This document shows positions 9,040 to 25,062 of a stretch of DNA of 64,000 nt, one piece after another. Made by a program: the position numbers and the translations under genes. The DNA lies in contig JBILLS010000001.1 of the NCBI GenBank assembly GCA_044375955.1, positions 108,912 to 172,911 of the forward strand. Reading direction: 5' to 3'. Within the stretch, counting starts at the first letter, position 1, and every line of letters starts with the position of its first letter. The notes beneath the pieces were generated by a model, which saw only the letters and a program-made list of their open reading frames with translations, did not search any database and was not told the origin of the DNA. This DNA is from Candidatus Nanopelagicales bacterium. GTDB taxonomy: Bacteria; Actinomycetota; Actinomycetes; S36-B12.

Positions 9040-10131
9040 ATGCAGGTCATCCATGGTGAGGAATCAATCCCGGTCCGAAGTTCGACGACCACTGCCTGGG
9101 TCACTCTCCGCGGCGCGCATGTCGCGCCGGTCGAGTTCTCACTCGGTTCTCACACGGTGCAGCCCTACTCACTATCGCCGTGGTTGCCTTCAGAGCAGCA
9201 GGATCAGGACTCGCTGCTGCAGGTTCTGCGCGGGGATTTCTTCTGTCTACCCTTCGGCGCCCAGGCGGCCGGCCCTCCGCACGGTGTCATCGCAGGAAAC
9301 ACCTGGTCCGTCGTGGACGAGCAGCCCAACGCCGTCACGTTGCGCATCGCGGCGGAGGACATCGGAGCAACCGTGACCAAGACGGTCGAGGTGCGCGATG
9401 GTGACGCTTCCCTCTACCAAGAGTTCGTGGTCGAAGGCCTGTCCGGGATGTACAACTACGGGACCCACCCGATTCTGGACATGAGCGGGTATCCGACGGG
9501 GTCGGTCGAGTTGACCACTTCGCCGATCCGCTACGGCTCGGTGGCGCCCACGCTTTTCTCCGACCCTGCGCGGGGCGAACATCAGATCCTGGAGATCGGT
9601 GCCACATTCACGTCACTCGCATCAGTTCCGCGGGCTGACGGTCAGACGCTTGATCTGAGCCACCTTCCGACCCCACCCGGGCACGAAGACCTGGTGATGA
9701 TCGTTCCCGAGGCACGATCAGGACTGGCGTGGAGCGCACTCCGCTTCCCCGACCATGTGTGGTTCTCCCTTCGTCGGGTCGAGGACTTCCCCGCGACAGT
9801 TCTGTGGGTTTCCAACGGCGGCCGGTCTGCTGCGCCGTGGTCTAGTCGCCACACGGGTCGCCTCGGAATCGAGGACGTGTGCTCGTACTTCGCCGAGGGT
9901 CACGAGCCGTCGGTTGCCGCTCCCCTCGCGTCGCTGGGAATTCCCACGGCACGCGAGTTCCGTGCTGGAGAGAGCGTGCGGCTTCGAGTTGTGCAAGCGG
10001 TCGCCGCTCTGCCCGAGGGCTTCGGCAGGATCACCGAGATTCGCGATGTGCAGGGCTACGCCGTGATCGTGGACGACACTGGCCGCGAGATTCCCACCGC
10101 GACCAGTTGCGCGTACCTCAACGAGAAGTAG
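9040..10131 (+). CDS. hypothetical protein (possibly galactose-mutarotase-like fold)
   Basis: 363-aa ORF with an ATG start and no competing frame. There is only a weak by-eye resemblance to aldose-epimerase-like beta-sandwich proteins. Function unknown. Confidence 0.6.
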   Translation: MQVIHGEESIPVRSSTTTAWVTLRGAHVAPVEFSLGSHTVQPYSLSPWLPSEQQDQDSLLQVLRGDFFCLPFGAQAAGPPHGVIAGNTWSVVDEQPNAVTLRIAAEDIGATVTKTVEVRDGDASLYQEFVVEGLSGMYNYGTHPILDMSGYPTGSVELTTSPIRYGSVAPTLFSDPARGEHQILEIGATFTSLASVPRADGQTLDLSHLPTPPGHEDLVMIVPEARSGLAWSALRFPDHVWFSLRRVEDFPATVLWVSNGGRSAAPWSSRHTGRLGIEDVCSYFAEGHEPSVAAPLASLGIPTAREFRAGESVRLRVVQAVAALPEGFGRITEIRDVQGYAVIVDDTGREIPTATSCAYLNEK

Positions 10132-11919: not shown

Positions 11920-13053
11920 ATGAATTCGCAACGGGAGGCCATGCCTGACCGGCTCCGCGCCCTCGCGTTGCTGGGAATCGTGGTTGTCAACGCACCGCTG
12001 CTTGGCATCGTTGGCAGCGAGGGGCTCTCTCAGGAGTCACTGACGGGCCCGATCAACACTTCGGCCGCCTTCCTGATGATTGCCCTCGCTCAGGGGAAGT
12101 TCTATCTCCTGTTCTCGTTTCTATTCGGCTATAGCGCCTCCTACATTCTCAAGGACAACACGCGCGCCAACAGGTTCCGCTTCAGCCGGAGGCTCCTCGT
12201 CCTCGCTGCAATCGGATTCGTGCATGCGGTCTTCTTCTTCATCGGAGACATCCTCATCAGCTACGCACTGCTCGGCTTCGGGCTCCTCGCGCTCTCCCGA
12301 CGCTCGGATCGAGCGCTCAAAGTCTGGATAGTGATCACGGCGACTGTCTCGGTCCTCCTGATCACAGCGTCTGTGTCACTGGTCGCACTGATCCCGGAAC
12401 CGAGTCCCGGCTTGACCTATCTGGACTCAGCGTTGGCGACTGGATCCTTCGTCGAGGCTGCCGGTGCGCGACTCCAGTCTCTTCCGACCGTGGTGATCTA
12501 CGTCCTGCTGACCCAGGGCGGGATGGCCTTCGCCGCATTCCTGCTGGGCCTGCTCGCTTCACGTCACCGATACCTGGCCGAACCGCTCACGCACTCGGCG
12601 CAATGGCGGCGGATGATGATCGTCGGCCTGTCTGTCGGACTTCCGCTCCAGGTGGTTGCGGCATGGCTGCAAGTCACCTCGATTAGCGCAGGATCGGTGT
12701 ACTCCGGAGCCGGCAGCTTGGGGTTGATTCTCGGTTTCTCGACGGCACCGGTGCTGGCTGCAGGCTATGTCGGTGCCTTGGGTTGGATCCTCAGTCGCAG
12801 GCCGGCTTTCCTCCGCACCCTCACTCCCGCAGGTCGGGCTTCACTCACGGTCTACATCGGCGAGTCCGTGCTGCTATCGCTGCTGTTCTGCGGCTACGGC
12901 CTGGGCTTCTACGGAGAGTGGGGCGCTTTCCCGGTCATGCTCGCGGCAGTCCTGTCGTGGGTTCTGCTGGTGCTGTTCGCTCGGCTGTGGCTCAATCGGT
13001 TCCCGCGCGGTCCACTGGAGGAAGTTGTCGCGCGTCTCACGCGACGTGGGTAA
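11920..13053 (+). CDS. DUF418/YeiB-family membrane protein
   Basis: 377 aa, polytopic. The N-terminus RLRALALLGIVVVNAPLLG is typical of the DUF418 family. Confidence 0.7.
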   Translation: MNSQREAMPDRLRALALLGIVVVNAPLLGIVGSEGLSQESLTGPINTSAAFLMIALAQGKFYLLFSFLFGYSASYILKDNTRANRFRFSRRLLVLAAIGFVHAVFFFIGDILISYALLGFGLLALSRRSDRALKVWIVITATVSVLLITASVSLVALIPEPSPGLTYLDSALATGSFVEAAGARLQSLPTVVIYVLLTQGGMAFAAFLLGLLASRHRYLAEPLTHSAQWRRMMIVGLSVGLPLQVVAAWLQVTSISAGSVYSGAGSLGLILGFSTAPVLAAGYVGALGWILSRRPAFLRTLTPAGRASLTVYIGESVLLSLLFCGYGLGFYGEWGAFPVMLAAVLSWVLLVLFARLWLNRFPRGPLEEVVARLTRRG

Positions 13054-13061
13054 CTCATGTT

Positions 13062-13125
13062 CTACGACTGCGCCATGTCCACGAAGCGTGAGTAGTGCCC
13101 CTGGAAGGAAACCGTGATGGTCGCG
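13062..13125 (-). pseudogene. orphan 3' fragment of dnaB (left direct repeat)
   Basis: In the dnaB frame the minus strand reads ATITVSFQGHYSRFVDMAQS-stop. The live DnaB C-terminus is ATITVAFQGHYSRFVDMAQS. It is 61/64 nt identical to 22645-22708, and no dnaB sequence lies upstream of it. Confidence 0.85.
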
Positions 13126-13211
13126 ATTCGTGTACAAGGGATCTTCAGAGCAATTGTCGAACTGACCAGCAGGCAGTGTCAGCATGAGCTTCTCATTGAA
13201 CTAGGTAGGCA

Positions 13212-14069
13212 CTAGGCCTTTTCAACGACTTGCCTTTGCAGACCCAGGCCTTGAATTCCCACCTCCATAACGTCACCTGGTGCCAAGTACCTTGGCGGCT
13301 TCTTCCCAAGACCAACCCCTGGCGGGGTGCCGGTGTTGATGAGGTCGCCGGGCTCAAGGACCATGAACTGACTGAGATACCAGACGAGGAAATTGACGGG
13401 GAAAATCATCGTCCTGGTCGAACCCTCCTGCATCCTTTCGCCATTGACATCAAGCCACATGTCGAGATCCTGAGCGTCGAGGATCTCATCGGGGGTAGCC
13501 AGCCATGGTCCACACGGGTTGAAGGAGTCGCATGACTTCCCCTTGACCCACTGACCTCCACGTTCAAGTTGAAATTCCCGTTCGGAAACGTCATTGACAA
13601 TCAGGTATCCCGCAATTGCGTCAGCCGCATCATCGGGAGAAGCGAGATAAGAGACACGTTGTCCTATCACGACGCCTAGCTCTACCTCCCAATCCGTCTT
13701 TCGTGAATTACGGGGGATGAACACCGGGTCATTGGGGCCTGCAATGGTGTTCGGAGCTTTATTGAAAATGATCGGTTCCGCAGGAATCGACATGTTTGAC
13801 TCAATCGCATGGTCCGAATAGTTGAGGCCAACACAAAGGATCTGATGTGGTCGAGATATTGGTGATCCGATTCTCTTTCCCGCTATCGATTGCTGAGGTC
13901 CCTGGTCGATTCTCCGCCGAATTGCCCTTTGCAGTTCCGGACTACCCAAATTGACGATTGCATCAGCATTGATATCGGGGACGATATCCGAGATATCGAC
14001 GAAGACCTCATCATTCACCATGACAGCAGGCGACTCGGCCCCGACCGGTCCAACTCGTGCGAATTTCAC
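13212..14069 (-). CDS. fumarylacetoacetate hydrolase (FAH)-family protein
   Basis: 285 aa with GLNYSDHAIES...PIIFNKAPNTIAGP...DWEVELGVVIG, typical of FAH-family 2-keto/2,4-diketo-acid hydrolases or hydratases. Confidence 0.85.
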   Translation of the reverse strand: MKFARVGPVGAESPAVMVNDEVFVDISDIVPDINADAIVNLGSPELQRAIRRRIDQGPQQSIAGKRIGSPISRPHQILCVGLNYSDHAIESNMSIPAEPIIFNKAPNTIAGPNDPVFIPRNSRKTDWEVELGVVIGQRVSYLASPDDAADAIAGYLIVNDVSEREFQLERGGQWVKGKSCDSFNPCGPWLATPDEILDAQDLDMWLDVNGERMQEGSTRTMIFPVNFLVWYLSQFMVLEPGDLINTGTPPGVGLGKKPPRYLAPGDVMEVGIQGLGLQRQVVEKA

Positions 14070-14989
14070 TCGTTCTCTCCTAAGTCGATCTTCTGTGAGG
14101 CTTCCCGTCGACTGACGTAATCGGGGAAACCGACCTTCAAGTTGACCATCACGGGCAATGGCGCACCCGGTACATGCACCTTGGAAACGTAGACCGCCCC
14201 GTCTTCCGCTCGCTTGCTCTGCTCGGGATTCGCGGTCGTTATTGCGAGGTGGTCAAGTTCGTCTCCAACGAAGCAGCAGGAGGTGACATGGGCGGCAGGC
14301 ACCTCGATCCTTTCCAAGGAATTCCCTCGGAGGTCAAAGCACACAAGCTGACCGCCGGACCAGAACGCAACCCACACACGACCCTTCACGTCCATTGCGC
14401 ATCCGTCAGGGAGTCCCGCTATATGCGAGAGGTCAACGATTCGGGGGGGCGAAGTGACTGTTCCCTCGTCCGGCGAGTAGTCATAGACGAAGAAGGCCCT
14501 TCGCAAGGTATCGATATGCACCATGGTGTGGCCATCAGCCGACCACACCAGGCCGTTGGAGATGCTCAGCCCGGACAAGATTTCGGTGGATCCGGCGCGA
14601 TCCACACGTAGCAAGGATCCGAAACCATCCTGATATTCGCGATGCGTAGTACCGAGGAACAGTCGACCTCGCGAGTCACATCCTCCGTCATTGAAGCGAA
14701 CGTTCACGTCCAAGGGGATATGCCTCACTGGCTCAATTTCAGGCAATATGCCCAAGGCGATCGACCTTTCAAGGGCCACAGCCTGTTGACCATCGGCGGT
14801 GGAGACAATGCAGCAGACCGATTGAAGGGTCTCAAAGGAACGCAGCTCCCGTGAGGCCCAATTGATCGAGAAGAGTTTTCGACTGTCGATGTCAGAAAAC
14901 CAGAGGATTCCACGCGGATCCCAATAGGGAGATTCCCCTAGGGAGCATCCAGCGTGGGCGACTAGTTCCGCCGTTGTCGTGGGGATCAT
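14066..14989 (-). CDS. SMP-30/gluconolactonase-family protein
   Basis: 307 aa. The N-terminal GESPYWDPRGILWFSDI and the repeated beta-propeller pattern fit this family. 4-nt overlaps on both sides. Confidence 0.8.
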   Translation of the reverse strand: MIPTTTAELVAHAGCSLGESPYWDPRGILWFSDIDSRKLFSINWASRELRSFETLQSVCCIVSTADGQQAVALERSIALGILPEIEPVRHIPLDVNVRFNDGGCDSRGRLFLGTTHREYQDGFGSLLRVDRAGSTEILSGLSISNGLVWSADGHTMVHIDTLRRAFFVYDYSPDEGTVTSPPRIVDLSHIAGLPDGCAMDVKGRVWVAFWSGGQLVCFDLRGNSLERIEVPAAHVTSCCFVGDELDHLAITTANPEQSKRAEDGAVYVSKVHVPGAPLPVMVNLKVGFPDYVSRREASQKIDLGENE

Positions 14990-15738
14990 CGTGCGGTCAT
15001 GCCGCCGTCGACAACCAGGGCGCTTCCAGTCACAAATGAGTTACGCACCAAGAAGACAACCGCGGCAGCAATTTCGTTCGGGTCACCGAGTCTTCCGAGT
15101 AATTGCCGTTCTTCCATCACTTTTCGCGCCTGCTCCGGCTGTGGGTTGTCAGCCAAGATTCCGTCGATCCAGCCAGTGAGTACCGTTCCTGGACAAACAG
15201 CGTTGACACGTATTCCATCCTTTGCATGATCGACTGCCATGGCTCGAGTAAGCGACACAACAGCACCCTTGGAAGCGCAATAGGCCGCGCGTGATTCAAG
15301 GCCGACGAGCGCGGCCACCGAGGCGATGTTGACGATTGATCCACCACCGCGACTGATCATGTGAGGGACCAGCAGCCGAGAAGTCTCGAATATGGCGTGG
15401 ATGTTTACGTCAAAGATTCGATGCCACTGTTCTCGGGTAGTCGCTACCACATTTGCGGCCACTGCTGTACCTGCATTATTCACGAGAACATCGATCGAAG
15501 TCCTGCCGAGCACCTCCGTTAGAGCTGCCTCAAGATTTGCGGCCTCAGCGACGTCCGCGGTAATTCCCTCGACCGCTACCCCCTCATCGTTGAGCGATGA
15601 GACAACCGTGGACAAGGTCTGGTCATCCCTATCGACGAGGACAAGATTCATCTTTTCCGAGGCAAGAGCGAAAGCGATCGAGCGCCCGATACCGCTCGCC
15701 GCACCGGTCACGAGTGCTGTTTTCTCCACGGCAGCCAC
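14986..15738 (-). CDS. SDR-family oxidoreductase
   Basis: 250 aa with TGAASGIG and YCASKGAV (YxxxK). Confidence 0.85.
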   Translation of the reverse strand: MAAVEKTALVTGAASGIGRSIAFALASEKMNLVLVDRDDQTLSTVVSSLNDEGVAVEGITADVAEAANLEAALTEVLGRTSIDVLVNNAGTAVAANVVATTREQWHRIFDVNIHAIFETSRLLVPHMISRGGGSIVNIASVAALVGLESRAAYCASKGAVVSLTRAMAVDHAKDGIRVNAVCPGTVLTGWIDGILADNPQPEQARKVMEERQLLGRLGDPNEIAAAVVFLVRNSFVTGSALVVDGGMTAR

Positions 15739-15740
15739 CC

Positions 15741-16109
15741 CTACTTCTGGGGAAGCCCAGAGACGTCAAAGTAGGCCCGCACTTCCTTGAAGCGGTCCCC
15801 TTCGAGCTTTATGACATTCACTCCTGATATCGGGTAGCGGACACCCTTCTCGTCGATCAGGACCGCAGACCACTCGACTACCGCGGTATCACCATCCCCG
15901 TAGTCCCCCACCACCTCGACCTCGAGACCTGGAAACTGCGCGGCCGATTCCTCGTAGTACCTCCGAACTTCATGGTGACCCACAAGGTCCCATCCTGGGG
16001 CAACGAAACGGGCATCGGGTTGGTAATGACGGAGCACTCCGTCTATGTCTCTCGCGCACTCACTTCTCCAGTACGACTCGGCGACTTCTCTTTGTCTTGA
16101 CACGTTCAT
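15741..16109 (-). CDS. SnoaL/NTF2-like small protein
   Basis: I moved the start to ATG 16107-16109 (MNVSRQREVAESYW). 122 aa with a SnoaL-like pattern (YYEESAAQFPGLEVEV...AVVEW). The longest ORF adds 24 unlikely codons. Confidence 0.6.
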   Translation of the reverse strand: MNVSRQREVAESYWRSECARDIDGVLRHYQPDARFVAPGWDLVGHHEVRRYYEESAAQFPGLEVEVVGDYGDGDTAVVEWSAVLIDEKGVRYPISGVNVIKLEGDRFKEVRAYFDVSGLPQK

Positions 16110-16147
16110 GCACCTCACAGTGGGTCGCGGAAATTGGAAATGGGAAT

Positions 16148-16179
16148 GGTGGGCGGAGGACACACATCCTCCGCCCACC
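16148..16179 (-). terminator. intra-operon stem-loop just after the SBP gene
   Basis: Perfect 13-bp stem GGTGGGCGGAGGA / TCCTCCGCCCACC with a 6-nt loop, 7 nt past the SBP stop. On the minus strand it is followed by the T-rich ATTCCCATTTCCAATTTCC. Confidence 0.6.
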
Positions 16180-16185
16180 ACGCGG

Positions 16186-17271
16186 CTAGAAAGCGCCGCC
16201 CGTTTCCTTTTGCTTGGTTATGTACTCGGCGATGTTGGTCTCATCGACCACATAGAGATCCGTGTACAACGGATCCGCAGGTGGAGTGCAGGTGTTGAGA
16301 TAGTCGACCATCGCCTGGACGCCGGTCTGGCCGAATCCCCACCATGAGTAGCCGACGAGCTCATTCGCATAGCCCTGATCGACGGCATTGAGCGCACCCT
16401 CCAGTGAATCGAGAGAATTCACGTATCCACCGTCAGCCACGAACTGCTTGAGGTTCGGCATTGAGGCGAGGTCAGCGAAGAACGGCCACATGCCGACAAA
16501 GAAGTACCCCTTGAGATCCGGCGTGGCATTGATCTTCGTTTCAACGATCTCGACTGCCTTCTGGACATCATCGAAATTCGGGTCCACCGAAACAATCTCC
16601 AGTTTCGAATTACTGGCAATACCCTCCTTGAAACCAGCAAGTCGTTGCTCGAGATTGAGGGCACCCGGTGTGCCCGTGAGAACGGCCACCTGACCACCAT
16701 CCGGCATCGCCTTCGCCATCAATTCGCCCGCCAACTTGCCTGCTGCGGTCTGGTCAATACCAATATTCGTCAGCCGCTTGGATGCCGGTGCGTCTGCATC
16801 CCAGGTCATGACCGGAATTCCCGCCTCGACAGCCCGGTCAATGCTCGGATCCAGCGCGGACGCGTCGTTCGCGCTGAGAATGATCCCATCGACACCTTTT
16901 GTCACGAGATCGTCGATGATCTGGCTCTGGGCAGCTGCATCCGTAGTCGCCGGACCTACCCATTCCACGGTGACGTTGCCAAGTTCGGCAGCCTTGTCCT
17001 CTGCACCCTGGCGAGTGATCTCGAATACAGGGTTGTTCAAGGCCTTCGGAACGAAAGCGATAGTGTAAGCATCCTTCGGGGTCGGGCAATTTGCATTGGC
17101 TTCGGCAGCGGGGCTTTGCGCCGCGGCCGTCTCCTCTGCAGTTTGGGCGTCTGAGGTTTCTGCGCTGTCAGTTGAGCCTCCACACGCGGCCAAGACCATG
17201 GCCCCGACAGCCAGCATCGTTACCGCGATGCTGGTCTGTCCCTTGATTCTCTTCATGTGCATCTTCTCCAT
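16186..17271 (-). CDS. sugar ABC transporter substrate-binding lipoprotein
   Basis: 361 aa. The signal peptide carries the lipobox LAA/C, followed by a low-complexity linker and a type I periplasmic binding fold. Confidence 0.85.
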   Translation of the reverse strand: MEKMHMKRIKGQTSIAVTMLAVGAMVLAACGGSTDSAETSDAQTAEETAAAQSPAAEANANCPTPKDAYTIAFVPKALNNPVFEITRQGAEDKAAELGNVTVEWVGPATTDAAAQSQIIDDLVTKGVDGIILSANDASALDPSIDRAVEAGIPVMTWDADAPASKRLTNIGIDQTAAGKLAGELMAKAMPDGGQVAVLTGTPGALNLEQRLAGFKEGIASNSKLEIVSVDPNFDDVQKAVEIVETKINATPDLKGYFFVGMWPFFADLASMPNLKQFVADGGYVNSLDSLEGALNAVDQGYANELVGYSWWGFGQTGVQAMVDYLNTCTPPADPLYTDLYVVDETNIAEYITKQKETGGAF

Positions 17272-17312
17272 TCCTTAGTTGACCTGCTGTCCACCAGCAG
17301 GACATTCGTGGG

Positions 17313-18308
17313 TTACTGGGTGCGACTTCGCCGTCGGAAGAGGTCAAACATCGCAGCGACCAATATGACGGCACCGATAAATGTCTGTTGCCAGTAGGTG
17401 GGAACAGACAGGAGCACCAGTGCGTTATTCACCAGTGAGATGAGCAATGCACCCAGGAGAACTCCGAGTGCGGTTCCTTTGCCGCCCGCAAGCGAGGCAC
17501 CACCGATGACCACCGCCGCGATAACGGTCAGTTCCATTCCAACACCTGCGTTCGGAACGGCAGAGCCGAGGCGCGCGGTGACCATGACACCGGCTAGACC
17601 CGCGAAGAGGCCACTGAAAATGAACGCGAGCAGAATTCGACGCTTCACCGGGACTCCGGAAAGTCCAGCAGCCACACGATTAGATCCCACCGCATACATG
17701 TCCCGTCCCAGTGCGGTCTTCGCCAAGACGATCCAGACGATGACGGCGAGGAACACCGCGATCCAGATGGGTATGGGTACCCCGAGAACCGGTGCAGTGC
17801 CGAGTTCAAGAAACCCTTCGGGCAGTCCTGACACCGCTTGACCCTGTTTGTATCCCAGTGTGATACCTCGGACCATTTGCAGAGTCGCTAACGTGACGAT
17901 GAAACTCGTGATTCCAATGTAGGCAACAACGACACCATTGAACGCTCCGACGGCCAGACCAATGAGTAGCCCGACGACGAATGCCCAAATCGGATTACCC
18001 CCCTCTGCCATGATCGAGGCGGTCACGATTCCGGCAAGTCCCATCGTTGAGCCCACCGACAGATCGATCCCGCCGACGATCACCACAAACAGTTGGCCGA
18101 GAGCAGCCATCGCAACGAAGGCCCAGTACAGACCGACAGAAGACAAATTCTTTCCGGTAAGGAATGCATCCGATGAAAGGCTAAGTACCACCATTGCCAC
18201 TGCGATCGCGGCAAGAAGCCTGAGATCGCTGAACTTGCCGAGATAGGCTGAGATCGAACGTCCGGTGCCACCCCAGGAACTCGTCTCAATCGACGAACTG
18301 CTGCTCAT
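17313..18308 (-). CDS. sugar ABC transporter permease
   Basis: 331 aa, RbsC-type polytopic protein. Its start overlaps the ATPase stop by 4 nt. Confidence 0.85.
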   Translation of the reverse strand: MSSSSSIETSSWGGTGRSISAYLGKFSDLRLLAAIAVAMVVLSLSSDAFLTGKNLSSVGLYWAFVAMAALGQLFVVIVGGIDLSVGSTMGLAGIVTASIMAEGGNPIWAFVVGLLIGLAVGAFNGVVVAYIGITSFIVTLATLQMVRGITLGYKQGQAVSGLPEGFLELGTAPVLGVPIPIWIAVFLAVIVWIVLAKTALGRDMYAVGSNRVAAGLSGVPVKRRILLAFIFSGLFAGLAGVMVTARLGSAVPNAGVGMELTVIAAVVIGGASLAGGKGTALGVLLGALLISLVNNALVLLSVPTYWQQTFIGAVILVAAMFDLFRRRSRTQ

Positions 18309-19816
18309 GCTGCCTGACCTCCTCTGATCTGGCTTTTCGGTGTCGCCAAGCGCATGACTTCGTCGGGCGAGATTCCGTGACTGCCGTCAAGTTGACCTTG
18401 GATGCGGCCCTCGGCAAAGACATAGACGCGGTGGGAAAGCGCGAGAACCTCTTCCAACTCACTCGAGATGAGAATCGTCGCTGTTCCACCCCTGGCCAGC
18501 TCAATGATCAGTTTGTGGATTTCGTCTTTAGCTCGCACATCGACTCCGCGAGTCGGCTCGTCCAAAATGAGAACCCGTGGCCGTGCCTCGATTGCACGGG
18601 CAAGAATTGATTTCTGTTGATTGCCGCCGCTCAACGTCTCAATGGGTTGAAGAAGACTCTGCAATCGAATATCGAACAATGATTTGGACTCATCAGACGC
18701 CCGACGCAGTTCTTTCGAGCTGAGAAGACCCCACTTGATGAACTGTGAGAGGTTTCCAACATGCAGGTTCTCGTGAACGGATAGGCCGGGAACTATGCCT
18801 TGGTGCTTTCTGTCCTCTGGTACGAGTGCAATTCCCGCCTTGCGGATGGCACTCATTGACCGACCCGAAACTCTTTGACCGTCGAGAACGACTTCCCCGC
18901 TCGTCAATGGATCCGCACCGATGATGGCAAGAGCTGCTTCACTTCGCCCAGATCCCACGAGTCCTGCGAGGCCGATGATCTCGCCATCGTGAACCGTCAT
19001 TGAGATGTCATGGACATTTCGTGTCGATACATCGCGCACTTGAAGGACCAGCGATTCTCCGGGCGCAGGTAGTTCCGTTCGATAGAGTCCAACCGGACGA
19101 TCCACCATGAGGTGGATTAGTTCGTCCTCCTCAACTTCCCCATCAAATGAGCCAACGATCCGCCCATCCCGCATCACGGTTATCTCGTCCGAGATGCGTA
19201 ATACCTCATTGAGACGGTGTGAGATAAAGGCAATTCCACGATCGCCTCTCCTTAGGGCTTCTATTTGACTGAGAATCACCTCACTCGCGTCACCTGACAG
19301 CGCTGCAGTGGGCTCATCGAAGATGATGAACCGCGCATTGAGTGCCAATGCTTTGGCAATTTCGACTAGGTACCCCTGAGCGACAGAGAGCTCGGCTACC
19401 GGGGAGGCAGGGTTGATATCCAGATCTACTGAGGCCAGTGCCTCGCTGACGAATTGTTTCCCGGCACGGCTTCCACGGATCCTCCATGGGGCTCCTCGGG
19501 GACGAGCGAGCATGATGTTGTCGGCGACGGACAACCCGGACACGAGGGCAAGCTCCTGATGGACCATGACGATCCCGAGATCGGTTGCATTCCGTGGGTT
19601 TGACAGCGTCACCTCCTCTCCATTGAGGACGAGGCGCCCCGTGCTAGGGGAGGTGACACCGGCCAATATGCGCATCAAGGTGCTCTTGCCTGCGCCGTTT
19701 TCCCCCACGATCGAATGAACCCTGCCGCCAGTCAAGGCCAAGGTCGCATCACTGAGGACTCGCACTCCGTCGTACGACTTGGAGACGTTCACCGCTCCAA
19801 ATGTCGGGTGAGTCAT
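18305..19816 (-). CDS. sugar ABC transporter ATP-binding protein (double cassette)
   Basis: 503 aa with two Walker A sites (GENGAGKST, GLVGSGRSE), a second-cassette signature LSGGNQQK, and Walker B motifs IFDEPTA and ILDEPTRG. Confidence 0.9.
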   Translation of the reverse strand: MTHPTFGAVNVSKSYDGVRVLSDATLALTGGRVHSIVGENGAGKSTLMRILAGVTSPSTGRLVLNGEEVTLSNPRNATDLGIVMVHQELALVSGLSVADNIMLARPRGAPWRIRGSRAGKQFVSEALASVDLDINPASPVAELSVAQGYLVEIAKALALNARFIIFDEPTAALSGDASEVILSQIEALRRGDRGIAFISHRLNEVLRISDEITVMRDGRIVGSFDGEVEEDELIHLMVDRPVGLYRTELPAPGESLVLQVRDVSTRNVHDISMTVHDGEIIGLAGLVGSGRSEAALAIIGADPLTSGEVVLDGQRVSGRSMSAIRKAGIALVPEDRKHQGIVPGLSVHENLHVGNLSQFIKWGLLSSKELRRASDESKSLFDIRLQSLLQPIETLSGGNQQKSILARAIEARPRVLILDEPTRGVDVRAKDEIHKLIIELARGGTATILISSELEEVLALSHRVYVFAEGRIQGQLDGSHGISPDEVMRLATPKSQIRGGQAA

Positions 19817-20568
19817 GAGACCCCCCGGAATCCGAGCCTTGTAGAAATCGTCGCAGCTGCACGAGTAACGGCTTCGAGGTAGTCGCCGTCCAGTTTGCGC
19901 AAGGGGTCCGCATCAATGACTGAGACAGATAGCGCAGCAACTAGTCGCCCGTCACGGTCAAAGAGAGGCGCAGCGAAGCACGTTACTCCGACGGTTGATT
20001 CTCCCCGATCAACGCAGTAGCCAGATTTCGCAGACTCTCGTACGACGGCAATCAGATCTTCCCGTGTTGCAAGCGTGTTTCCTGTGAGTCGAGGTAGCGC
20101 TTCCGTGGGATAAAGAGCGCGGATCTCATCATCTGTCAAACCCTGCATCAAGATCTTGCCGAGTGCCGTCGCATGAGCAGGGAGACGTTTGCCGACCGCG
20201 CTGACTAATCTGACCGGGCGCTCATTCTCTTCCTTGAGCACGTAGATCACATCGTCGCCGTCGAGGATGCCGACGTGAGCAATCTGCTTGACCTCCGCGA
20301 CTAAATTGCGCAAGGTCTCAGCTGCTGCACCCTCGATGGTCATGTTGTTTGACCATGTCGCGCCCACTTCAAATGCGCGAAGGCCAATCGAATACGCACC
20401 CCCCTGGCCTAGGGATAGGAATCCATGGTCGACGAGGACGCCAAGGAGTCCGTGAAGACTCGAGCGAGGCAAGACCAACTGGTCTCGGATCTCCTTCATG
20501 GAGACCGGCTGTTCCTTCGCGACGAAGGCCAGGATCTCCAGGACCCTATCGGCGGACTTGATTGTCAT
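19813..20568 (-). CDS. IclR-family transcriptional regulator
   Basis: 251 aa with an N-terminal wHTH (ADRVLEILAFVAKEQPVSMKEIRDQL) and a C-terminal IclR effector domain. Confidence 0.85.
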   Translation of the reverse strand: MTIKSADRVLEILAFVAKEQPVSMKEIRDQLVLPRSSLHGLLGVLVDHGFLSLGQGGAYSIGLRAFEVGATWSNNMTIEGAAAETLRNLVAEVKQIAHVGILDGDDVIYVLKEENERPVRLVSAVGKRLPAHATALGKILMQGLTDDEIRALYPTEALPRLTGNTLATREDLIAVVRESAKSGYCVDRGESTVGVTCFAAPLFDRDGRLVAALSVSVIDADPLRKLDGDYLEAVTRAAATISTRLGFRGVS

Positions 20569-21497
20569 TCGACTTTCTCCAATTCAGCGACGAGCACCTC
20601 GGCTGCTCTCCGGCGGAGCTTGATCAGAGACGCGGGGCTGTAGTAGGCCACATGAGGCGTTGCGACGACCCGAGGGTGGAGGGCCAGCTTTGACGCATTC
20701 CCGCTCTCCTGAACGAAAACATCAAGGCCGGCAGCTGCGATAGCCCCTGAATCCAGGGCGGTCACGAGGGCTTCTTCGTCAATAAGTGATCCTCGCGAAA
20801 CGTTCAAGAGAATGGCGCCCGGCTTTACGCGAGCGAACTCTCGCACACTCAAAAGAGAAGCGGAGCCGGGCTGCGCTGGAACGTGGAGTGAGATCACATC
20901 CGAGTTCAAGACTTCCTCGAAACTCACTGACTCGACACCGTGCTCATCCAGGACCGTGGAGTTGACATTCGGATCGTGGGCGCACACTCTGCAGCCAAAT
21001 GCCTGCAAGCGGCGAGCGACAGCTCGAGCAATCTGACCAAATCCGATCAGCCCAATGGTTTTCCCACCTAAGGGCTCAAGTGCGGGGAAATCATGAGGCG
21101 GCGGCCAGGCACCCTTCTTGATTGCCGAATCACATTCTCGGATGCTGCGAGTCAGCGCGAGCAATAGTGCTAGGCAATGGTCCGCAACCTCATCGATGCA
21201 GTAATCATTGATTCCACGTACAGCGACCTGGGCACGTTCAGCGGCATCTAGATCAATCGTGTCCAAGCCGACGCCGTAACGGACTACTGCCTTCAGAGAC
21301 GGCGACTCAGAAATTACAAGCTCAGATATCGGCGCGTATTGCACAAGAAGCCCGGCGCTGCCCTGCGCTGCATCGATGATCTCCTGTTCATTGTGGAGTT
21401 GTCGGATGTCGAGCGAGTATCCAAATTCACCAACGACACCGCGCTCTATGGAGCCATCGCCGAAGTCACAGTCTGTTATAAGAATCTTCTTAGTCAT
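20565..21497 (-). CDS. D-isomer-specific 2-hydroxyacid dehydrogenase family protein
   Basis: I moved the start to ATG 21495-21497 (MTKKILITD), an 8-nt overlap with the upstream stop. NAD motif GLIGFGQIARAV. Confidence 0.8.
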   Translation of the reverse strand: MTKKILITDCDFGDGSIERGVVGEFGYSLDIRQLHNEQEIIDAAQGSAGLLVQYAPISELVISESPSLKAVVRYGVGLDTIDLDAAERAQVAVRGINDYCIDEVADHCLALLLALTRSIRECDSAIKKGAWPPPHDFPALEPLGGKTIGLIGFGQIARAVARRLQAFGCRVCAHDPNVNSTVLDEHGVESVSFEEVLNSDVISLHVPAQPGSASLLSVREFARVKPGAILLNVSRGSLIDEEALVTALDSGAIAAAGLDVFVQESGNASKLALHPRVVATPHVAYYSPASLIKLRRRAAEVLVAELEKVE

Positions 21498-22530
21498 GCG
21501 CGACTCCGTTTGGCATGACGATGACCTTGCCCACGTCATTCGGATTCAGGCACGCCATACGAAAAGCTTCGGCAGTTCTCTCGAGGGGATACTGATGGGA
21601 TATCAGCAGGCTCGGCCTGACGCGACCCTCCGCTAGAAGGGTTAGTGCTTTGGGCCACACGCCCGGGCTTCCCAGAGAACCGATGACCGTTTGGTCACCC
21701 ACCACCAACGCATCAGTGTTGATGGGTACGGTCGGGAGTCCACACAGACCTACCAGCACGGCACGGCCACCATTGGACAGGTGGCCAAGCGCGTCTTGAA
21801 CCCCGCTCGCCGTGCCCGACGCTTCAAGGATCCGATCGAATCGGTGCTCACCGGGTTCGACTGGTGTTGCTCCGAGGTCACGCCCACGATTGCGGCGAGA
21901 CTCCGAAGGCTCTAGGAGAAACGGCCTGGCCCGACCCTCGGCGCGGAGAATCATGACTGCCAATAGACCGATAACGCCCGCTCCGACGATCAGAACCGAC
22001 TCCCGGTTGCCCACCTCGAGTCGTTCCACTGCACGCAGAGCCACCGCTAAAGGCTCTGTCAGGGCGGCGTCTTGAAGGTTCACACCTTTAGGAACTATGT
22101 GAGTGGCCTTCGCAGGAAAGATCATGCGCTCAGTCAGGGCCCCGTCAAGCTTCATGACGCCCGTCTCGAATCTCGCTGTGCACTGGTGATAGTTCGAGTC
22201 CCAGCAGCGCGGACACCGGCCGCATCCGATACTGCACTCCCCCACCACGACGTCACCAGGCGCTAATCCCGTCACCCCTGGTCCTACTTCGAGGATTCGT
22301 CCGACCCACTCGTGGCCCGGAACTAGAGGCAGCTTGGTAAGGCCTTGCCTGAGGTACACCATTGAGCCTTGAAGCAACTCTTGGTCAGTCGCACAAACCC
22401 CAACAATGAGTGGCTCGATGGCGACTTGGTTCTGAGGAGGGGCAAATGGCGAACGTTCAACAACCTCGAGGACGTCTGCCCCTCGGATCTCAACGGCCCT
22501 CAACCGTTCACATCCCTGAACACAATTCAT
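21490..22530 (-). CDS. zinc-dependent alcohol/polyol dehydrogenase (MDR family)
   Basis: 346 aa with GHEWVG, a structural-zinc Cys cluster (CGRCPRCWDSNYHQC) and NAD motif GAGVIGLL. A TTG start at 22503 is an alternative. Confidence 0.85.
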   Translation of the reverse strand: MNCVQGCERLRAVEIRGADVLEVVERSPFAPPQNQVAIEPLIVGVCATDQELLQGSMVYLRQGLTKLPLVPGHEWVGRILEVGPGVTGLAPGDVVVGECSIGCGRCPRCWDSNYHQCTARFETGVMKLDGALTERMIFPAKATHIVPKGVNLQDAALTEPLAVALRAVERLEVGNRESVLIVGAGVIGLLAVMILRAEGRARPFLLEPSESRRNRGRDLGATPVEPGEHRFDRILEASGTASGVQDALGHLSNGGRAVLVGLCGLPTVPINTDALVVGDQTVIGSLGSPGVWPKALTLLAEGRVRPSLLISHQYPLERTAEAFRMACLNPNDVGKVIVMPNGVAHD

Positions 22531-22570
22531 ACATGTAGACAGCCTATGGGCAAGGCTGGGGAAATCAAGG

Positions 22571-22606
22571 CGCGTTTCCGAATCGTTACGCGCTTCCGCA
22601 TCGTTG
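22571..22606. repeat. tandem 18-nt repeat in the island operon upstream region
   Basis: CGCGTTTCCGAATCGTTA followed directly by CGCGCTTCCGCATCGTTG (15/18 identical). It lies 41-76 nt upstream of the ADH start and 38 nt past the dnaB stop. Confidence 0.5.
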
Positions 22607-22644
22607 CCTCGAGCGCACCCGTGGCAGCGCGGGCATAAGCCCTG

Positions 22645-22708
22645 CTAGGACTGCGCCATGTCCACGAAGCGTGAGTAGTGACCCTGGAAGGCAACCGTGA
22701 TGGTCGCG
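22645..22708 (-). repeat. right direct repeat (3' end of the live dnaB)
   Basis: 61/64 identical to 13062-13125 and covers the last 20 codons plus stop of dnaB. Confidence 0.85.
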
Positions 22709-25062
22709 GTGGGTCCGTTGCGGTGCTTGGCGACGATGAAGTCAGCTTCACCGGCACGCGGTGACTCACGCTCGTAGAAATCTTCGCGGTGAAGGAGCAC
22801 AACCATGTCTGCGTCCTGCTCCAGTGAGTTGTGCACCGCGACGCCATCGGCGATGAAGTTGTGCGTTCCCAGCACCTCGGCGTCGAACACGTCCATCTCA
22901 CCGAGTGACTCGACACCTACGACTTCATCCCAGTAGACATCGTTCGTGGCGATCATCTCGAGCTCCTCGGATTCGAGGACGGTGGCCACCCGTTGCAGAC
23001 GCTGCCTGCTGGGCGCCGACTTCCAGAGCGTGCTGCCGCAGTACTGGGTTCCCAGTTTCGACTGGAACTCGCGATGGGTCATGCCCTTCTCACCGATGAT
23101 CTCGCGTACCTGATTCCACACGTCGACGGGAACCGTGTCACGCTTCGGATTCGAATCGATGTCCTCGAGGATGCGCAAGAGCCGACGCCCGGTTGTTCCA
23201 CGCGACCCGTACGCATTGATCCGACGAAGGAATACCTTCTGGTCGGCTGCTCCGGAGATATCCACGTGGTACCCATCTCGGAAACCGCTCTTGCGGGCGA
23301 CACGAATTCGCGTGTGGATCCCGAATCGAAGGAGCAGACGCGACACGCCATCGGCGAGAGCTCGGCTCGTCGACGCGTAGTAGATGCGCCCTCCGCGCTC
23401 GTGCGGCGAGATGAGGATCGATCCGTCTGTCGCCCAGAGATGACGCAGGAAGAGTGCGATCTGCTCCTTGGGCAACGAGAAGACCGGTTCCGGGATGGCG
23501 GTCACACTCACGGAGGTCGACTCATCGCAGAGCGATTGAGCAAGAACGATGACCCGCTCATCCGACCACTCGGTGACCCGGGTGGGGGCGGGGACGTGGC
23601 GCGGGATGGCGATCCGATCACCGGAATCCAACGCACCCAAGGACGTCCAACCATGGAAAGTCAGGAATGGGTGGTTGGCCGTGGCGTCGACGACCCGTCC
23701 GCTCGCCGTGCGGAGGCGGAAGACTTCCTTCCGACCCGTGGAGAACACATGGGTCAACGGACGAGACACGTAGCGCAGGGAATCATCGAGGGACCACACG
23801 GGGATATCGCGCTCTCCTGAGGCGAACAGTTCACCCATGGTTACTTCCGCACCGTTGTCGGCCCGTAGCACGCGTGTGGTGGCAGGAAGGCAACCCGACT
23901 CACGAAGGTCCGACAGCATCGGTCGCTTGTCTTGGCGCTGTTCCGGACCGCGGTTGAGCTGGCTGATCGCAATGACGGGCACGTCGAGTTCCTTCGCGAG
24001 CAGCTTCAACGAACGTGAGAATTCCGACACTTCCTGCTGACGACTCTCGACGCGCTTACCGCTCGTCATCAATTGCAGGTAGTCGACGACGACGAGTCGT
24101 AGATCGTGTCGCTGCTTCAGGCGCCGGCATTTCGCGCGAATCTCCATGAGAGTCAGGTTGGGTGAATCATCGATGAACAGGGGGGCGTCGTTGACCGTTC
24201 CCATCTTCTGGGCGAGCTTGGTCCAGTCGGTGTCGGTCATAGTGCCGGTGCGCATGTGATGCATGGACACCTGCGCTTCAGCGGCAAGCAAACGCATCAC
24301 GATCTCATTGCGACTCATCTCCAAGGAGAAGATCACGCTGGTGAGACCGTGCTTGATGGATGCCGCACGACAAATATCGATACCGAGCGTGCTTTTGCCA
24401 ATCGAAGGCCGTGCAGCCAGAATCACGAGTTGGCCCGGATGCAGACCGTTGGTGAGCGAATCCAGATCGGTGAATCCGGTGGGAACGCCGACCATCTCAC
24501 CGTCACGATTAGAGATCGCCTCGATCTCGGTGAGTGCCTCGTTCATCACGGCACTCAGCGGGAGGTAGTCGTCACTGTTCCTACGTTCCGTGACCTCGTA
24601 GACCTCGGCTTGCGCGCGATCGACGATGTCGTCGACCTCACCCGTTCCGCTATAGCCCATCTGCGTGATGCGCGTTCCGGCCTCGACGAGGCGGCGCAGG
24701 ATCGCCTGCTCGCGCACGATGCGTGCGTAGTAGTTGGCATTCGCGGCCGTGGGGACCATCGACACGAGTGTGTGGAGGTAACTGGCACCACCGATGCGTG
24801 AGATCTCCGCGCTCTTCGTGAGTTCGGCCGAGAGGGTCACCGCATCGGCGGGTTCCCCGCGCCCATAGAGATCGAGGATCGATCCGTAGATGACCTGGTG
24901 CGCCGGTCGATAGAAGTCCGTCTCGCGAATCACCTCGACGACGTCGGCGATCGCGTCTTTACTCAGCAACATCGCGCCGAGAACGGATTGCTCAGCAGCG
25001 ATGTCCTGGGGCGGGGTGCGATCGGCGGGCTGATCAGGAAGCGGCAATTCCGCGACGCTCAC
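22645..25062 (-). CDS. dnaB: replicative DNA helicase DnaB, intein-containing
   Basis: 805 aa with a GTG start preceded by GGGGAGGGA. Walker A ARPSIGKST. The RESG / S(L)EQDAD motif is split by a 355-aa insert. Confidence 0.95.
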   Translation of the reverse strand: MSVAELPLPDQPADRTPPQDIAAEQSVLGAMLLSKDAIADVVEVIRETDFYRPAHQVIYGSILDLYGRGEPADAVTLSAELTKSAEISRIGGASYLHTLVSMVPTAANANYYARIVREQAILRRLVEAGTRITQMGYSGTGEVDDIVDRAQAEVYEVTERRNSDDYLPLSAVMNEALTEIEAISNRDGEMVGVPTGFTDLDSLTNGLHPGQLVILAARPSIGKSTLGIDICRAASIKHGLTSVIFSLEMSRNEIVMRLLAAEAQVSMHHMRTGTMTDTDWTKLAQKMGTVNDAPLFIDDSPNLTLMEIRAKCRRLKQRHDLRLVVVDYLQLMTSGKRVESRQQEVSEFSRSLKLLAKELDVPVIAISQLNRGPEQRQDKRPMLSDLRESGCLPATTRVLRADNGAEVTMGELFASGERDIPVWSLDDSLRYVSRPLTHVFSTGRKEVFRLRTASGRVVDATANHPFLTFHGWTSLGALDSGDRIAIPRHVPAPTRVTEWSDERVIVLAQSLCDESTSVSVTAIPEPVFSLPKEQIALFLRHLWATDGSILISPHERGGRIYYASTSRALADGVSRLLLRFGIHTRIRVARKSGFRDGYHVDISGAADQKVFLRRINAYGSRGTTGRRLLRILEDIDSNPKRDTVPVDVWNQVREIIGEKGMTHREFQSKLGTQYCGSTLWKSAPSRQRLQRVATVLESEELEMIATNDVYWDEVVGVESLGEMDVFDAEVLGTHNFIADGVAVHNSLEQDADMVVLLHREDFYERESPRAGEADFIVAKHRNGPTATITVAFQGHYSRFVDMAQS
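22828..23892 (-). mobile_element. DnaB intein with LAGLIDADG-type endonuclease-like insert
   Basis: Covers aa 391-745. It begins with Cys after RESG, has block B TANHPF, and ends VAVHN followed by Ser. Internal motifs are FLRHLWATDGSI and FLRRINAYGSRG. Removing it restores the contiguous RESGSLEQDAD. Confidence 0.9.

Follow-up and report, generated by a model that had tools for sequence, protein, structure and literature searches.

Borders of the island in occupied and empty alleles

The locus described here raises the question of how a block of ten metabolic genes came to lie directly behind dnaB, enclosed by two copies of the 3′ end of this gene. The window denotes the whole stretch of DNA that was analysed, 64 kb in length. 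It contains two direct repeat copies of 64 nt at 13062–13125 and 22645–22708, which are identical at 61 of 64 positions, have a start-to-start spacing of 9583 nt and enclose 9,519 bp; recomputation returned the figures given in the preliminary description. The right copy consists of the stop codon, the last 20 codons and one further nucleotide of dnaB, an intact minus-strand gene encoding 805 aa (22645–25062) that forms the right flank of the island, and the coordinates agree with its description as the functional end of this gene. The left copy, likewise in minus-strand orientation, is an orphan dnaB end (stop codon and 20 codons) separated by an 8-nt spacer (13054–13061) from the stop codon of the convergent gene of the left flank, which encodes a DUF418 membrane protein (11920–13053, plus strand; Pfam PF04235), again as described before. 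A check for a dispersed repeat, allowing up to three mismatches, returned only these two copies in the window, with 0 expected from shuffled sequences.

The empty site that had been predicted was found. Five contigs encoding the identical DUF418 protein, which is thus common to occupied and empty contigs, show the order DUF418, 8 nt, dnaB, the two genes being convergent with their stop codons 8 nt apart. The flanks of these metagenome contigs are 99.4–99.7% identical to the window; they match it up to 13125, where the alignment stops exactly, and pick up again in dnaB, placing the left junction of the island at 13125/13126. Three congeners (L096, L097/L098 and L100) are also empty at the site and have in common the tail-to-tail arrangement of DUF418 and dnaB with a spacer of 5–8 nt. 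At the level of sequence, these comparisons establish an insertion polymorphism with exact borders.

The same alleles demonstrate that the two repeat copies differ in origin, because positions 37 and 4 sort them differently. The orphan is identical to the dnaB end of the empty alleles at 63 of 64 positions and shares with the conspecific empty alleles a derived C at position 37, where the functional copy carries the ancestral A; a G at position 4 is unique to the functional copy. Accordingly sorted, the orphan is what remains of the resident dnaB end, and the functional end is of a foreign allele type. Within the 73 nt left of the island four fixed differences from the empty alleles were found (13053, 13059, 13060 and 13109), three of them (13053, 13059 and 13060) in the DUF418 stop codon and the 8-nt spacer.

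Gene content and composition of the island

As the preliminary description had noted, the ten ORFs are tightly packed on the minus strand; they occupy 13212–22530, neighbours overlapping by 4 nt or lying no more than 42 nt apart. The operon begins with a gene for a zinc-dependent alcohol/polyol dehydrogenase (ADH; 21490–22530; PF08240, PF16912, PF00107), followed by a D-isomer-specific 2-hydroxyacid dehydrogenase (20565–21539; PF02826, PF00389), which likely starts near 21497 since public gene calls give 310 aa, and an IclR-family transcriptional regulator (19813–20568; PF01614, PF09339). A sugar ABC transporter is encoded by an ATPase gene with two ABC domains (18305–19816; PF00005 twice), the nearest non-self homologue being 73% identical, a permease gene (17313–18308; PF02653) and a gene for a CUT2-type substrate-binding lipoprotein (16186–17271; PF13407), which is weakly RhaS-like with a TIGR02637 match under the cut-off of that model. 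The following SnoaL-like (NTF2-fold) small protein (15741–16181; PF12680) probably has its true start within the ORF, because public gene calls give 80 or 122 aa in conspecific occupied contigs and 120–121 aa in homologous operons. The operon ends with a short-chain dehydrogenase/reductase (14986–15738; PF13561, PF00106), a lactonase of the SMP-30/gluconolactonase type (14066–14989; PF08450, 7.6e-59) and an enzyme of the fumarylacetoacetate hydrolase (FAH) family (13212–14069; PF01557, 1.3e-69), which resembles 2,4-didehydro-3-deoxy-L-rhamnonate hydrolase (NF053535, 349 bits, below the equivalog cut-off of 500). With its ABC importer, IclR regulator, three dehydrogenases, lactonase, SnoaL-like protein and FAH-family hydrolase, the gene set is reminiscent of oxidative, non-phosphorylative pathways for deoxy-hexoses or sugar acids, with no recognisable dehydratase among the ten genes.

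In the island, profile matches revealed no gene for a recombinase, transposase, relaxase or excisionase, and in the 20 other large ORFs of the window no mobility gene; the window also contains no tRNA and no Rfam match. Non-coding DNA at the ends of the island amounts to 86 nt and 114 nt only. The left end (13126–13211), downstream of the FAH gene, has no homology to the empty alleles and contains no DUF418 remnant; the right one (22531–22644) separates the dnaB stop codon from the operon. The G+C content is 56.9% in the island compared to 65.4% in the rest of the window, and GC3 is 0.57–0.67 in island genes compared to 0.72–0.79 in flanking genes. The compositional step proposed earlier is therefore real, but smaller than the hand-counted 45–55% against 72%. 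The lowest G+C values of 2-kb intervals (0.554–0.579) fall within or straddle the island, and two boundary-straddling intervals (0.587 and 0.610) overlap values found elsewhere, e.g., 0.600 at 62–64 kb. The island is best read as a non-mobile operon for the catabolism of a sugar or sugar acid, acquired horizontally.

The diverged tract extends from the island into the dnaB intein

The dnaB gene of the window, on the minus strand throughout, is composed of an N-extein of 390 codons (23893–25062), an intein of 355 aa with a LAGLIDADG homing-endonuclease domain (22828–23892; PF14890, PF14528) and a C-extein of 60 codons and the stop codon (22645–22827). The C-extein carries 11 synonymous differences from the conspecific empty alleles. 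Compared to the empty allele L007, the N-extein differs only in its last 7 nt (four differences, including one Ser codon switch); the initial 1,162 nt of dnaB are free of differences, and the next 2.2 kb hold one only. All 15 differences from the empty alleles are synonymous and lie within spliced-CDS positions 1163–1349. The tract that diverged from the empty alleles thus comprises the full 183 nt of C-extein, the intein and 7 nt at the end of the N-extein, and the alignments demonstrate that it is contiguous from intein to island.

Intein and island occur together in five of five occupied contigs, and an intein-less dnaB and an empty site in five of five others, i.e., their co-occurrence is consistent in 10/10 contigs. 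This full linkage is expected under any history because just 183 nt separate the two large insertions. Both are equally low in diversity among the occupied contigs (island 0.086%, intein 0.067%), two to three times below the flanks (0.17–0.26%). The intein is missing from the five sampled conspecific empty-site alleles, and the congener L096 carries the intein at an empty site, showing that intein and island are separable. Moreover, the codons around the intein insertion site are common to intein-plus alleles of two species.

A second version of the island at the same site

The lineage L091 is the only other one found with the island at the dnaB site. Its operon, 71% identical at the nucleotide level, lies between the dnaB stop codon and DUF418, so that the dnaB-operon arrangement exists in a second lineage. 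The spacer between dnaB and the operon is homologous to that of the window; the ADH-proximal ~90 nt of the 114-nt region are conserved and presumably represent the promoter/operator of the operon. The left side differs: L091 has no orphan repeat, its junction lies inside the DUF418 stop region and removes the DUF418 stop codon, and the 86-nt left end of the window is not alignable with its L091 equivalent. More distant operon homologues are found at unrelated loci without a dnaB fragment. Between congeners, dnaB contains 5–7 identical runs of at least 25 nt compared to 0–2 in DUF418, which makes dnaB the better homologous anchor. A one-sided homologous anchor predicts one constant and one variable junction, as observed with the window and L091.

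A proposed import anchored in dnaB

We propose, with moderate confidence, that intein, dnaB end and operon were imported as one foreign block, with the conserved dnaB acting as homologous anchor and an illegitimate join at the far side. The donor would have belonged to a related lineage that already had the operon immediately behind dnaB. The incoming DNA, running from the intein over the C-extein into the operon, would have recombined homologously inside the resident dnaB, and its far end, 86 nt past the last operon gene, would have become attached, by an illegitimate join, at the point 64 nt ahead of the resident dnaB stop codon. The complete dnaB end of the donor would keep the essential gene intact, and the last 64 nt of the resident gene would be stranded beside DUF418 as a dead orphan, giving rise to the apparent direct repeat. 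We infer that intein, C-extein and operon came in through a single event and that the join on the left is illegitimate, and likewise the direction and mode of DNA transfer.

The suggested mechanism is homology-facilitated illegitimate recombination (HFIR), an established route for foreign DNA known from naturally transformable bacteria and from E. coli conjugation (PMC3240628). Similar to HFIR, the locus would combine one homologous crossover in a conserved anchor with one non-homologous join, the recipient would lose the stretch in between (here 119 nt of resident C-extein) to the incoming DNA, and SNPs of donor type extend from the anchor into the foreign part. It differs in being deduced from natural haplotypes, in the large insert of about 10.8 kb, in the anchor, an essential gene that depended on an intact 3′ end from the incoming DNA, and in an anchor point that coincides with the intein insertion site. 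HFIR was also put forward for Rhs, CDI and T6SS effector loci, where a new 3′ end and new downstream genes are brought in and the old end is displaced downstream as a non-functional orphan (PMC5361080 and references therein). There the ends are distinct toxin tips and the displacement itself is adaptive, whereas here the two ends specify an identical peptide, with the metabolic operon between them as payload. HFIR is rare in experiments (PMC5361080), which counts against the preferred reading.

Further points qualify the proposed import. Homing may have brought in the intein and the codons next to it separately, since these codons are shared across two species and L096 has the intein with an empty site. 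Homing with co-conversion of flanks is known (PMC2790892, PMC2330249), also for inteins of haloarchaeal MCM helicases (PMC10643990). As in these systems, a LAGLIDADG intein in a replicative helicase is polymorphic within a population, and the insertion site is flanked on either side by clustered synonymous differences, which move with the intein across species. However, known co-conversion tracts consist of flanking homologous sequence, whereas the tract here would be continuous with 9.5 kb of non-homologous cargo, for which homing alone is insufficient. In addition, the four fixed differences left of the island, which a very recent in-situ event does not predict, hint that introgression from a sister lineage may have brought in the occupied haplotype as a whole, together with the orphan; the founding event would then be older.

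Site-specific integration and other alternatives

The preliminary description had interpreted the repeats as the scar of site-specific integration. This holds insofar as comparison with conspecific and congeneric genomes shows the block to be inserted, its composition is foreign, and its incoming 3′ end keeps dnaB intact while the resident end is orphaned. An integrase-mediated event with dnaB as attB is not borne out, considering the missing recombinase, the divergence past the repeat, the L091 junction and the homologues without dnaB. Nevertheless, an att-flanked element would likewise show a direct repeat regenerating the gene end, and the main rival to dnaB-anchored import, which we consider unlikely but worth weighing, is an integrase supplied in trans. 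The island would then be a cargo-only integrative element, like a cis-mobilizable element, with an attP holding a 64-nt mimic of the dnaB 3′ end on which a helper-encoded recombinase acts at dnaB, and the intein and remaining C-extein differences would stem from an independent homing event, made plausible by the flanking codons that move with the intein. Integrative elements such as the SGI1-type islands at trmE target and regenerate the 3′ end of a protein gene (PMC8409611), cis-mobilizable elements are recombinase-less derivatives of integrative elements (PMC5704250), and reviews and databases of IME, ICE and CIME provide precedents for recombinase-less att-flanked elements (PMC5704250, PMC6323972). 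The island shares with them the classical layout, i.e., border direct repeats of which the island-side copy restores a complete target gene, an exact empty site and a G+C content below that of the host, and two diverged versions occupy the same site in two lineages. In contrast to them, neither island version contains integrase, excisionase, relaxase or oriT-type genes, no recombinase was found in the rest of the window or in ~20 related loci at the site, and the 86-nt and 114-nt ends are too short for a decayed integrase. No helper element is known for the dnaB site, and no paper describing dnaB as attachment site surfaced, as judged from titles and abstracts. The second occurrence in L091 is without the left repeat, operon homologues elsewhere carry no dnaB fragment, the foreign tract exceeds the repeat, and two events are needed where one suffices.

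The same product without any integrase would result from a Campbell-type integration by RecA, in which a circularised fragment of ~64 nt of dnaB end and the operon recombined by a single crossover in the resident dnaB end, duplicating the 64-nt homology, and the intein arrived separately. Stretches of 64 nt exceed the usual minimal length for RecA recombination. We nonetheless regard this route as improbable, since it needs an illegitimate circularisation followed by a rare crossover within 64 nt at roughly 97% identity, requires another event for the 9 further differences upstream of the repeat and the intein, and leaves the missing duplication in L091 unaccounted for. Finally, that the island is ancestral and the empty sites are secondary deletions is largely refuted and highly improbable: precise deletion between the 64-nt direct repeats is possible and a second lineage has the island at the same site, but a deletion would leave in place the intein and, upstream of the repeat, the C-extein of window type, while all five empty alleles are without intein and with 9 other differences there, three congeners share the tail-to-tail layout with its 5–8 nt spacer, and the orphan (63/64) is far too well preserved to date back to the 29% divergence of the two island versions.

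As a summary, the operon most likely entered by recombination anchored in dnaB, without a dedicated integrase, and the contigs compared indicate that the presence or absence of this island varies within one population of an uncultured, high-G+C actinobacterium.

Repeats, Borders and Composition of the Island

Between 11 and 25 kb a single long family of direct repeats was detected, with copies at 13062-13125 and 22645-22708 that are 64 nt long each, 61/64 identical and 9,583 nt apart from start to start. The repeat search thereby confirmed the preliminary description, in which these repeats were said to enclose 9,519 bp, and the positions of genes and Pfam domains agree with its assignment of both copies. 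The right copy (22645-22708, minus strand) consists of the stop codon and the final 20 codons of an intact dnaB (22645-25062, minus strand, 805 aa; Pfam DnaB, DnaB_C, Intein_splicing and LAGLIDADG_3), and the left copy is an orphan beginning 8 nt past the stop codon of the DUF418 gene (11920-13053), which is convergent with dnaB and forms the left flank. With up to three mismatches allowed, the 64-mer has two sites only in the 64-kb window and none in shuffled sequences, which dispels for the window the earlier concern that it might be a multi-copy dispersed repeat.

The enclosed sequence contains ten ORFs, all on the minus strand as first read, which fill positions 13212-22530 with 4-nt overlaps or short gaps and leave non-coding ends of 86 nt on the left (13126-13211) and 114 nt on the right (22531-22644). 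The lower G+C content proposed from hand counts is real, although the computed step is smaller than those counts had indicated (56.9% in the island vs. 65.4% in the remainder of the window); GC3 is 0.57-0.67 in the island genes compared to 0.72-0.79 in neighboring genes. The gene content of the window is that of a core chromosome on the dnaA side, including dnaA, yidC, murJ, a class A PBP and the rpsF-ssb-rpsR-rplI cluster, and the island is located about 40 kb from the dnaA end, the presumed origin region. No tRNA, tmRNA, Rfam family or structured RNA was found in the window, and a target of this type at the site was therefore rejected.

Predicted Function of the Cargo Genes

Counting outwards from dnaB, Pfam and NCBIfam assign the genes to a Zn-dependent polyol/alcohol dehydrogenase (first), a D-2-hydroxyacid dehydrogenase (second), an IclR regulator (third), the ATPase, permease and binding protein of a CUT2-type sugar ABC importer (fourth to sixth), a SnoaL-like protein (seventh), an SDR (eighth), an SMP-30/gluconolactonase-type lactonase (SGL; ninth) and, outermost, an FAH-family hydrolase (tenth). 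The best NCBIfam match of the latter is 2,4-didehydro-3-deoxy-L-rhamnonate hydrolase (NF053535) with 349 bits at a cut-off of 500. A non-phosphorylative pathway of the L-rhamnose/L-fucose type comprises a sugar dehydrogenase, a lactonase, an acid-sugar dehydratase, a keto-deoxy-acid dehydrogenase and a diketo-acid hydrolase. Of these enzymes the island encodes dehydrogenases, the SGL lactonase and, at the sub-threshold score, the FAH-family hydrolase; an acid-sugar dehydratase is not recognizable among its genes, and an enolase-family gene is found near the operon homolog at the more distant locus L092. Judged by its gene families, the island is a putative self-contained cassette for uptake, regulation and oxidation, resembling non-phosphorylative deoxy-hexose or sugar-acid routes apart from the dehydratase.

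Occupied and Empty Sites in the Population

Conspecific metagenome contigs were collected by an exact look-up of the DUF418 protein. Five of them carry the island between dnaB and DUF418 (L001-L003, L006 and L008; 99.7-99.995% identical to the window), and in the other five DUF418 is followed by dnaB after 8 nt (L004, L005, L007, L009 and L010). The alignment of these empty contigs to the window stops exactly at 13125, where the left repeat borders on the island, and resumes in dnaB; this is the empty site that had been predicted, and the converse expectation of an island present in all relatives was not borne out. The site is also empty in the congeners L096, L097/L098 and L100 (DUF418 80-86% identical), and the empty state of three congeneric species shows that it is ancestral. 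L096 was the one locus obtained in a scan of metagenome contigs. The contig L102, which a reading of the gene table had suggested to be empty, is occupied.

An assembly artifact was rejected, since independent assemblies from JGI, ENA and Logan show the same junctions and since the empty contigs carry 15 linked SNPs and no intein. Sample JGI 3300044615 contains both haplotypes, and ENA ERZ27272066 is among the samples with one or the other. In all ten informative contigs the island and the DnaB intein go together: both are present in 5/5 occupied contigs, an intein-less dnaB accompanies the empty site in 5/5 empty contigs, and neither an intein-plus/empty nor an island-plus/intein-minus haplotype of the species occurs among them. 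Among occupied contigs, diversity is 0.086% in the island and 0.067% in the intein, two to three times lower than in the flanks. At 13053-13061, i.e., the DUF418 stop codon and the 8-nt spacer, occupied contigs read TAA CTCATGTT and empty contigs TAG CTCATCCT or TAG TTCATCCT, a difference fixed 5 vs. 5, even though the 64-nt orphan beside it matches the empty alleles at 63/64 positions.

Two further features of this population were observed. The alignment of L003 to the window falls into two blocks omitting about 70 nt (~7532-7601) at the boundary of an FGGY kinase and a LacI regulator, for which public gene calls give 437 or 460 aa (FGGY) and 338 or 333 aa (LacI); this is a second, small indel polymorphism. 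Moreover, the gene calls of several population contigs include an RHH-PIN toxin-antitoxin pair beyond rpsF as seen from dnaB (L005 12171-12802, L101 403-1034, L102 5985-6616), placed between rpsF and a phosphoribosyltransferase-family gene (window 29124-30365).

Origin of the Repeat Copies and the Diverged dnaB Tract

The three mismatches between the repeat copies were polarized against five other lineages. At repeat position 4 a G is unique to the functional copy, all other sequences having C; at position 37 a derived C is common to the orphan and the conspecific empty alleles, the functional copy and all outgroups having A; and at position 48 an A is private to the orphan. The orphan is thus the leftover of a resident dnaB end of the empty type. 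The functional dnaB end stems from another allele and probably arrived together with the island, so that the target end was replaced rather than simply duplicated.

This is extended by the comparison of the complete genes. The intein (22828-23892, minus strand, 355 aa; PF14890 and PF14528, i.e., LAGLIDADG_3) lies 183 nt from the island border and has the features of its class, starting with C, ending with HN before S and being inserted in frame at a conserved site. Two LAGLIDADG-type motifs, LAQSLCDES and LWATDGS, can be read from the sequence, both with an acidic residue. Empty alleles encode an intein-less DnaB of 450 aa with an extein protein sequence identical to that of the 805-aa form. 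Upon in silico removal of the intein, the window dnaB differs from that of the empty contig L007 at 15 positions, all synonymous and all within 1163-1349 of the spliced CDS: four in the final 7 nt of the N-extein, where a serine codon is switched (AGC/TCG), and 11 in the C-extein, the window type of which is marked by 22648G, 22810T and 22813G, among others. Elsewhere there are no differences in the first 1,162 nt of dnaB and one in the next 2.2 kb. As the differences lead on from dnaB into the intein and the operon, the tract distinguishing the haplotypes is continuous from about 23899 to 13126 and comprises the N-extein tip, intein, C-extein and operon. The C-exteins of occupied and empty alleles are 94% identical compared to 89-91% for other species of the genus, suggesting a distinct but related lineage as source of the functional end.

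Among the congeners the intein is distributed sporadically, being present in L096 and missing from L097 and L100. The codons at the insertion site (slash; window 22807-22827 and 23893-23899) are GAG TCG GGT/TCN CTN GAG CAG in intein-plus alleles of two species, GAA AGC GGT/TCT TTG GAG CAA in the alleles without intein from this population and L100, and mixed in the intein-less L097 (GAA TCG GGA/TCG TTG GAA CAA). This tracking of intein presence may reflect either co-conversion in homing or target-site immunity; the flanking codons shared by intein-plus alleles of two species suggest that homing with co-conversion has happened in the genus. Further close DnaB relatives differ in length, with 877-879 aa in P0242-P0244 (91-96% identical over the aligned part) and 1141-1297 aa in P0246, P0268, P0269 and others (~80-84% identical). 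These lengths suggest a differently sized intein or two inteins and, as far as length can tell, point to a high intein turnover in the replicative helicase of this clade.

The Operon in Other Lineages

The island ATPase has no relative above 73% identity in the protein collection, and one scan of species-representative genomes returned only relatives of at most 45% identity and no donor. The 73% match stems from L091, a 9.6-kb Logan contig with the same ten genes in the same order and an operon G+C of 58.8%. Its first 56 nt are the end of a dnaB gene, and it terminates in a DUF418 3' end, showing that the same intergenic site is occupied in a second lineage. The dnaB-to-operon spacers of both versions can be aligned, so that dnaB and the operon were adjacent before the two versions diverged by 29%; an operon identity of 71% excludes the L091 lineage as donor. 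On the left, L091 has another junction and no orphan copy: at 9463-9525 the DUF418 frame lacks its native stop codon and spacer and runs ten codons into island-side sequence by the FAH gene. The regions downstream of FAH in the window and L091 do not align, with no significant homology, and in a six-frame comparison with 120 DUF418 C-termini the 86-nt island end scored no better as a donor DUF418 remnant than shuffled sequences.

More distant relatives of the operon (66-68% identity) are found at unrelated loci (L092-L095 and L105-L108), at which neither a dnaB fragment nor a recombinase was detected. In L092 (14095-18990; operon 66% identical) the lactonase gene is truncated and followed by IS110-family, Transposase_mut (IS256-like) and rve-type transposase genes, suggesting that in this lineage the cassette was disrupted by, or is associated with, IS elements.

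Absence of Mobility Genes

Prophages, ICEs, IMEs and integrase-driven genomic islands encode a tyrosine or serine recombinase, usually beside one att site. The Pfam and NCBIfam scans of the ten island ORFs yielded metabolic, transport and regulatory families only and no recombinase, transposase, relaxase, excisionase or phage gene. The island does have the direct repeats expected of attL/attR, of which empty sites hold one copy and L091 a repeat on one side only; it looks att-flanked, but does not encode the recombinase that defines such elements. The lack of a recombinase in both versions, the continuation of the tract past the repeat and the single repeat with a different junction in L091 argue against self-encoded site-specific integration. 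From the integration scar of the preliminary description, the insertion with a regenerated dnaB end is thus retained, and site-specific integration at an att site is not supported. Its remark that dnaB was unfamiliar as an attachment site agrees with a combined literature search, whose titles and abstracts surfaced no such report, and nothing in the present data shows dnaB to be one.

Other element types were rejected as well. A transposon or IS composite does not agree with the lack of a transposase and of terminal inverted repeats, nor with a duplication of 64 nt that belongs to a gene. The island has no megablast match in PLSDB. Phage matches to the dnaB end are dnaB homologs only, and the degenerate repeat core has two matches in IMG/VR, both of them full-length dnaB genes and no helper element.

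Mechanism of Acquisition

Our preferred reading, held with about even confidence, is a homology-anchored import by homology-facilitated illegitimate recombination (HFIR), which is treated as an established process (PMC3240628) and was proposed as the origin of orphaned 3' ends at T6SS and Rhs loci (PMC5361080). Incoming DNA from a lineage with the operon behind dnaB would recombine homologously inside dnaB, and its far end would be attached by an illegitimate joint. This joint would lie 64 nt ahead of the resident dnaB stop codon in the window, leaving the orphan, and at the DUF418 stop codon in L091. Both types of junction have a candidate in the sequence. The homologous one is represented by the synonymous differences contiguous with the intein and the island, beyond which the flank is identical to L007, and the non-homologous one by the abrupt end of homology to the empty alleles at 13125/13126; of the resident C-extein the last 64 nt are retained, and the 119 nt from the intein site to the orphan have been lost. 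A constant dnaB-operon junction combined with a variable left junction is the expectation for a one-sided homologous anchor. For this dnaB would be better suited than DUF418; comparison of congeners gives 5-7 identical runs of 25 nt or more for dnaB and 0-2 for DUF418. The donor-type dnaB-operon arrangement is seen in L091, and no closer relative was found in the protein collection or the species-representative genomes. Four fixed differences (13053, 13059, 13060 and 13109) hint that the whole occupied haplotype was perhaps introgressed later from a sister lineage in which the founding event occurred.

An integrase acting in trans, with the intein homing separately, would match the arrangement of the repeats and the fact that the site was used more than once. 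The nine further differences and the intein immediately upstream of the right repeat could then be ascribed to the separate homing, which has precedent in the genus; L096 has an intein without the island. We nevertheless regard it as unlikely, since two events are required, L091 is short of one repeat, and a helper or recombinase was seen nowhere; the sample of about 20 related loci contains no helper element with an integrase at dnaB, although absence from so small a sample is not proof. No circular junction occurs in the assembled contigs of the fetched loci.

It is also conceivable, at a rather low probability, that the LAGLIDADG endonuclease of the DnaB intein started the acquisition and that a single homing-type event carried in the non-homologous operon of 9.5 kb. 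The endonuclease would cut a resident dnaB without intein at the insertion site. Homologous repair from a foreign intein-plus dnaB would restore the N-extein side, and the C-extein side would be resected as far as 64 nt before the stop codon and then attached by end joining to the distal end of the donor fragment. Homing endonucleases mobilize flanking DNA (PMC2790892, PMC2330249), and no more than 7 nt separate the intein insertion site from the start of the replaced resident segment. As subsequent recombination within the population would sharpen tract borders likewise, the sharp border is not proof of such an event.

RecA-mediated Campbell integration of a circularized fragment would require two rare steps and a separate intein event and is very improbable. 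That the island is ancestral and the empty sites arose by deletion between the repeats deserves hardly any credence and was rejected, given intein-less and differently marked empty alleles, empty congeners and a young orphan.

Implications

The locus behaves like an HFIR product and like the orphan-forming displacements in toxin loci; it resembles an att-flanked island, but without an encoded recombinase. We classify it as a strain-variable metabolic island that was probably gained by homology-anchored recombination, of which the link to a helicase intein is unusual and testable. The duplication of a gene end around a foreign block, usually taken as an att scar, may arise without an integrase via a one-sided anchor in an essential gene, which calls for caution in automated island and attB calling. 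If an integrase were involved, dnaB would be an attachment site without prior description in the titles and abstracts of the literature search. The occupied and empty haplotypes together with the second lineage provide a clean natural example of the spread of a complete nutrient-uptake and catabolic operon in uncultured actinobacteria. Finally, since the island is tightly linked, physically and in the population, to a polymorphic DnaB intein, it can be tested whether breaks by homing endonucleases promote the uptake of neighboring cargo; if the homing-initiated event were true, the intein would be a vehicle for the horizontal transfer of adjacent cargo genes in bacteria.
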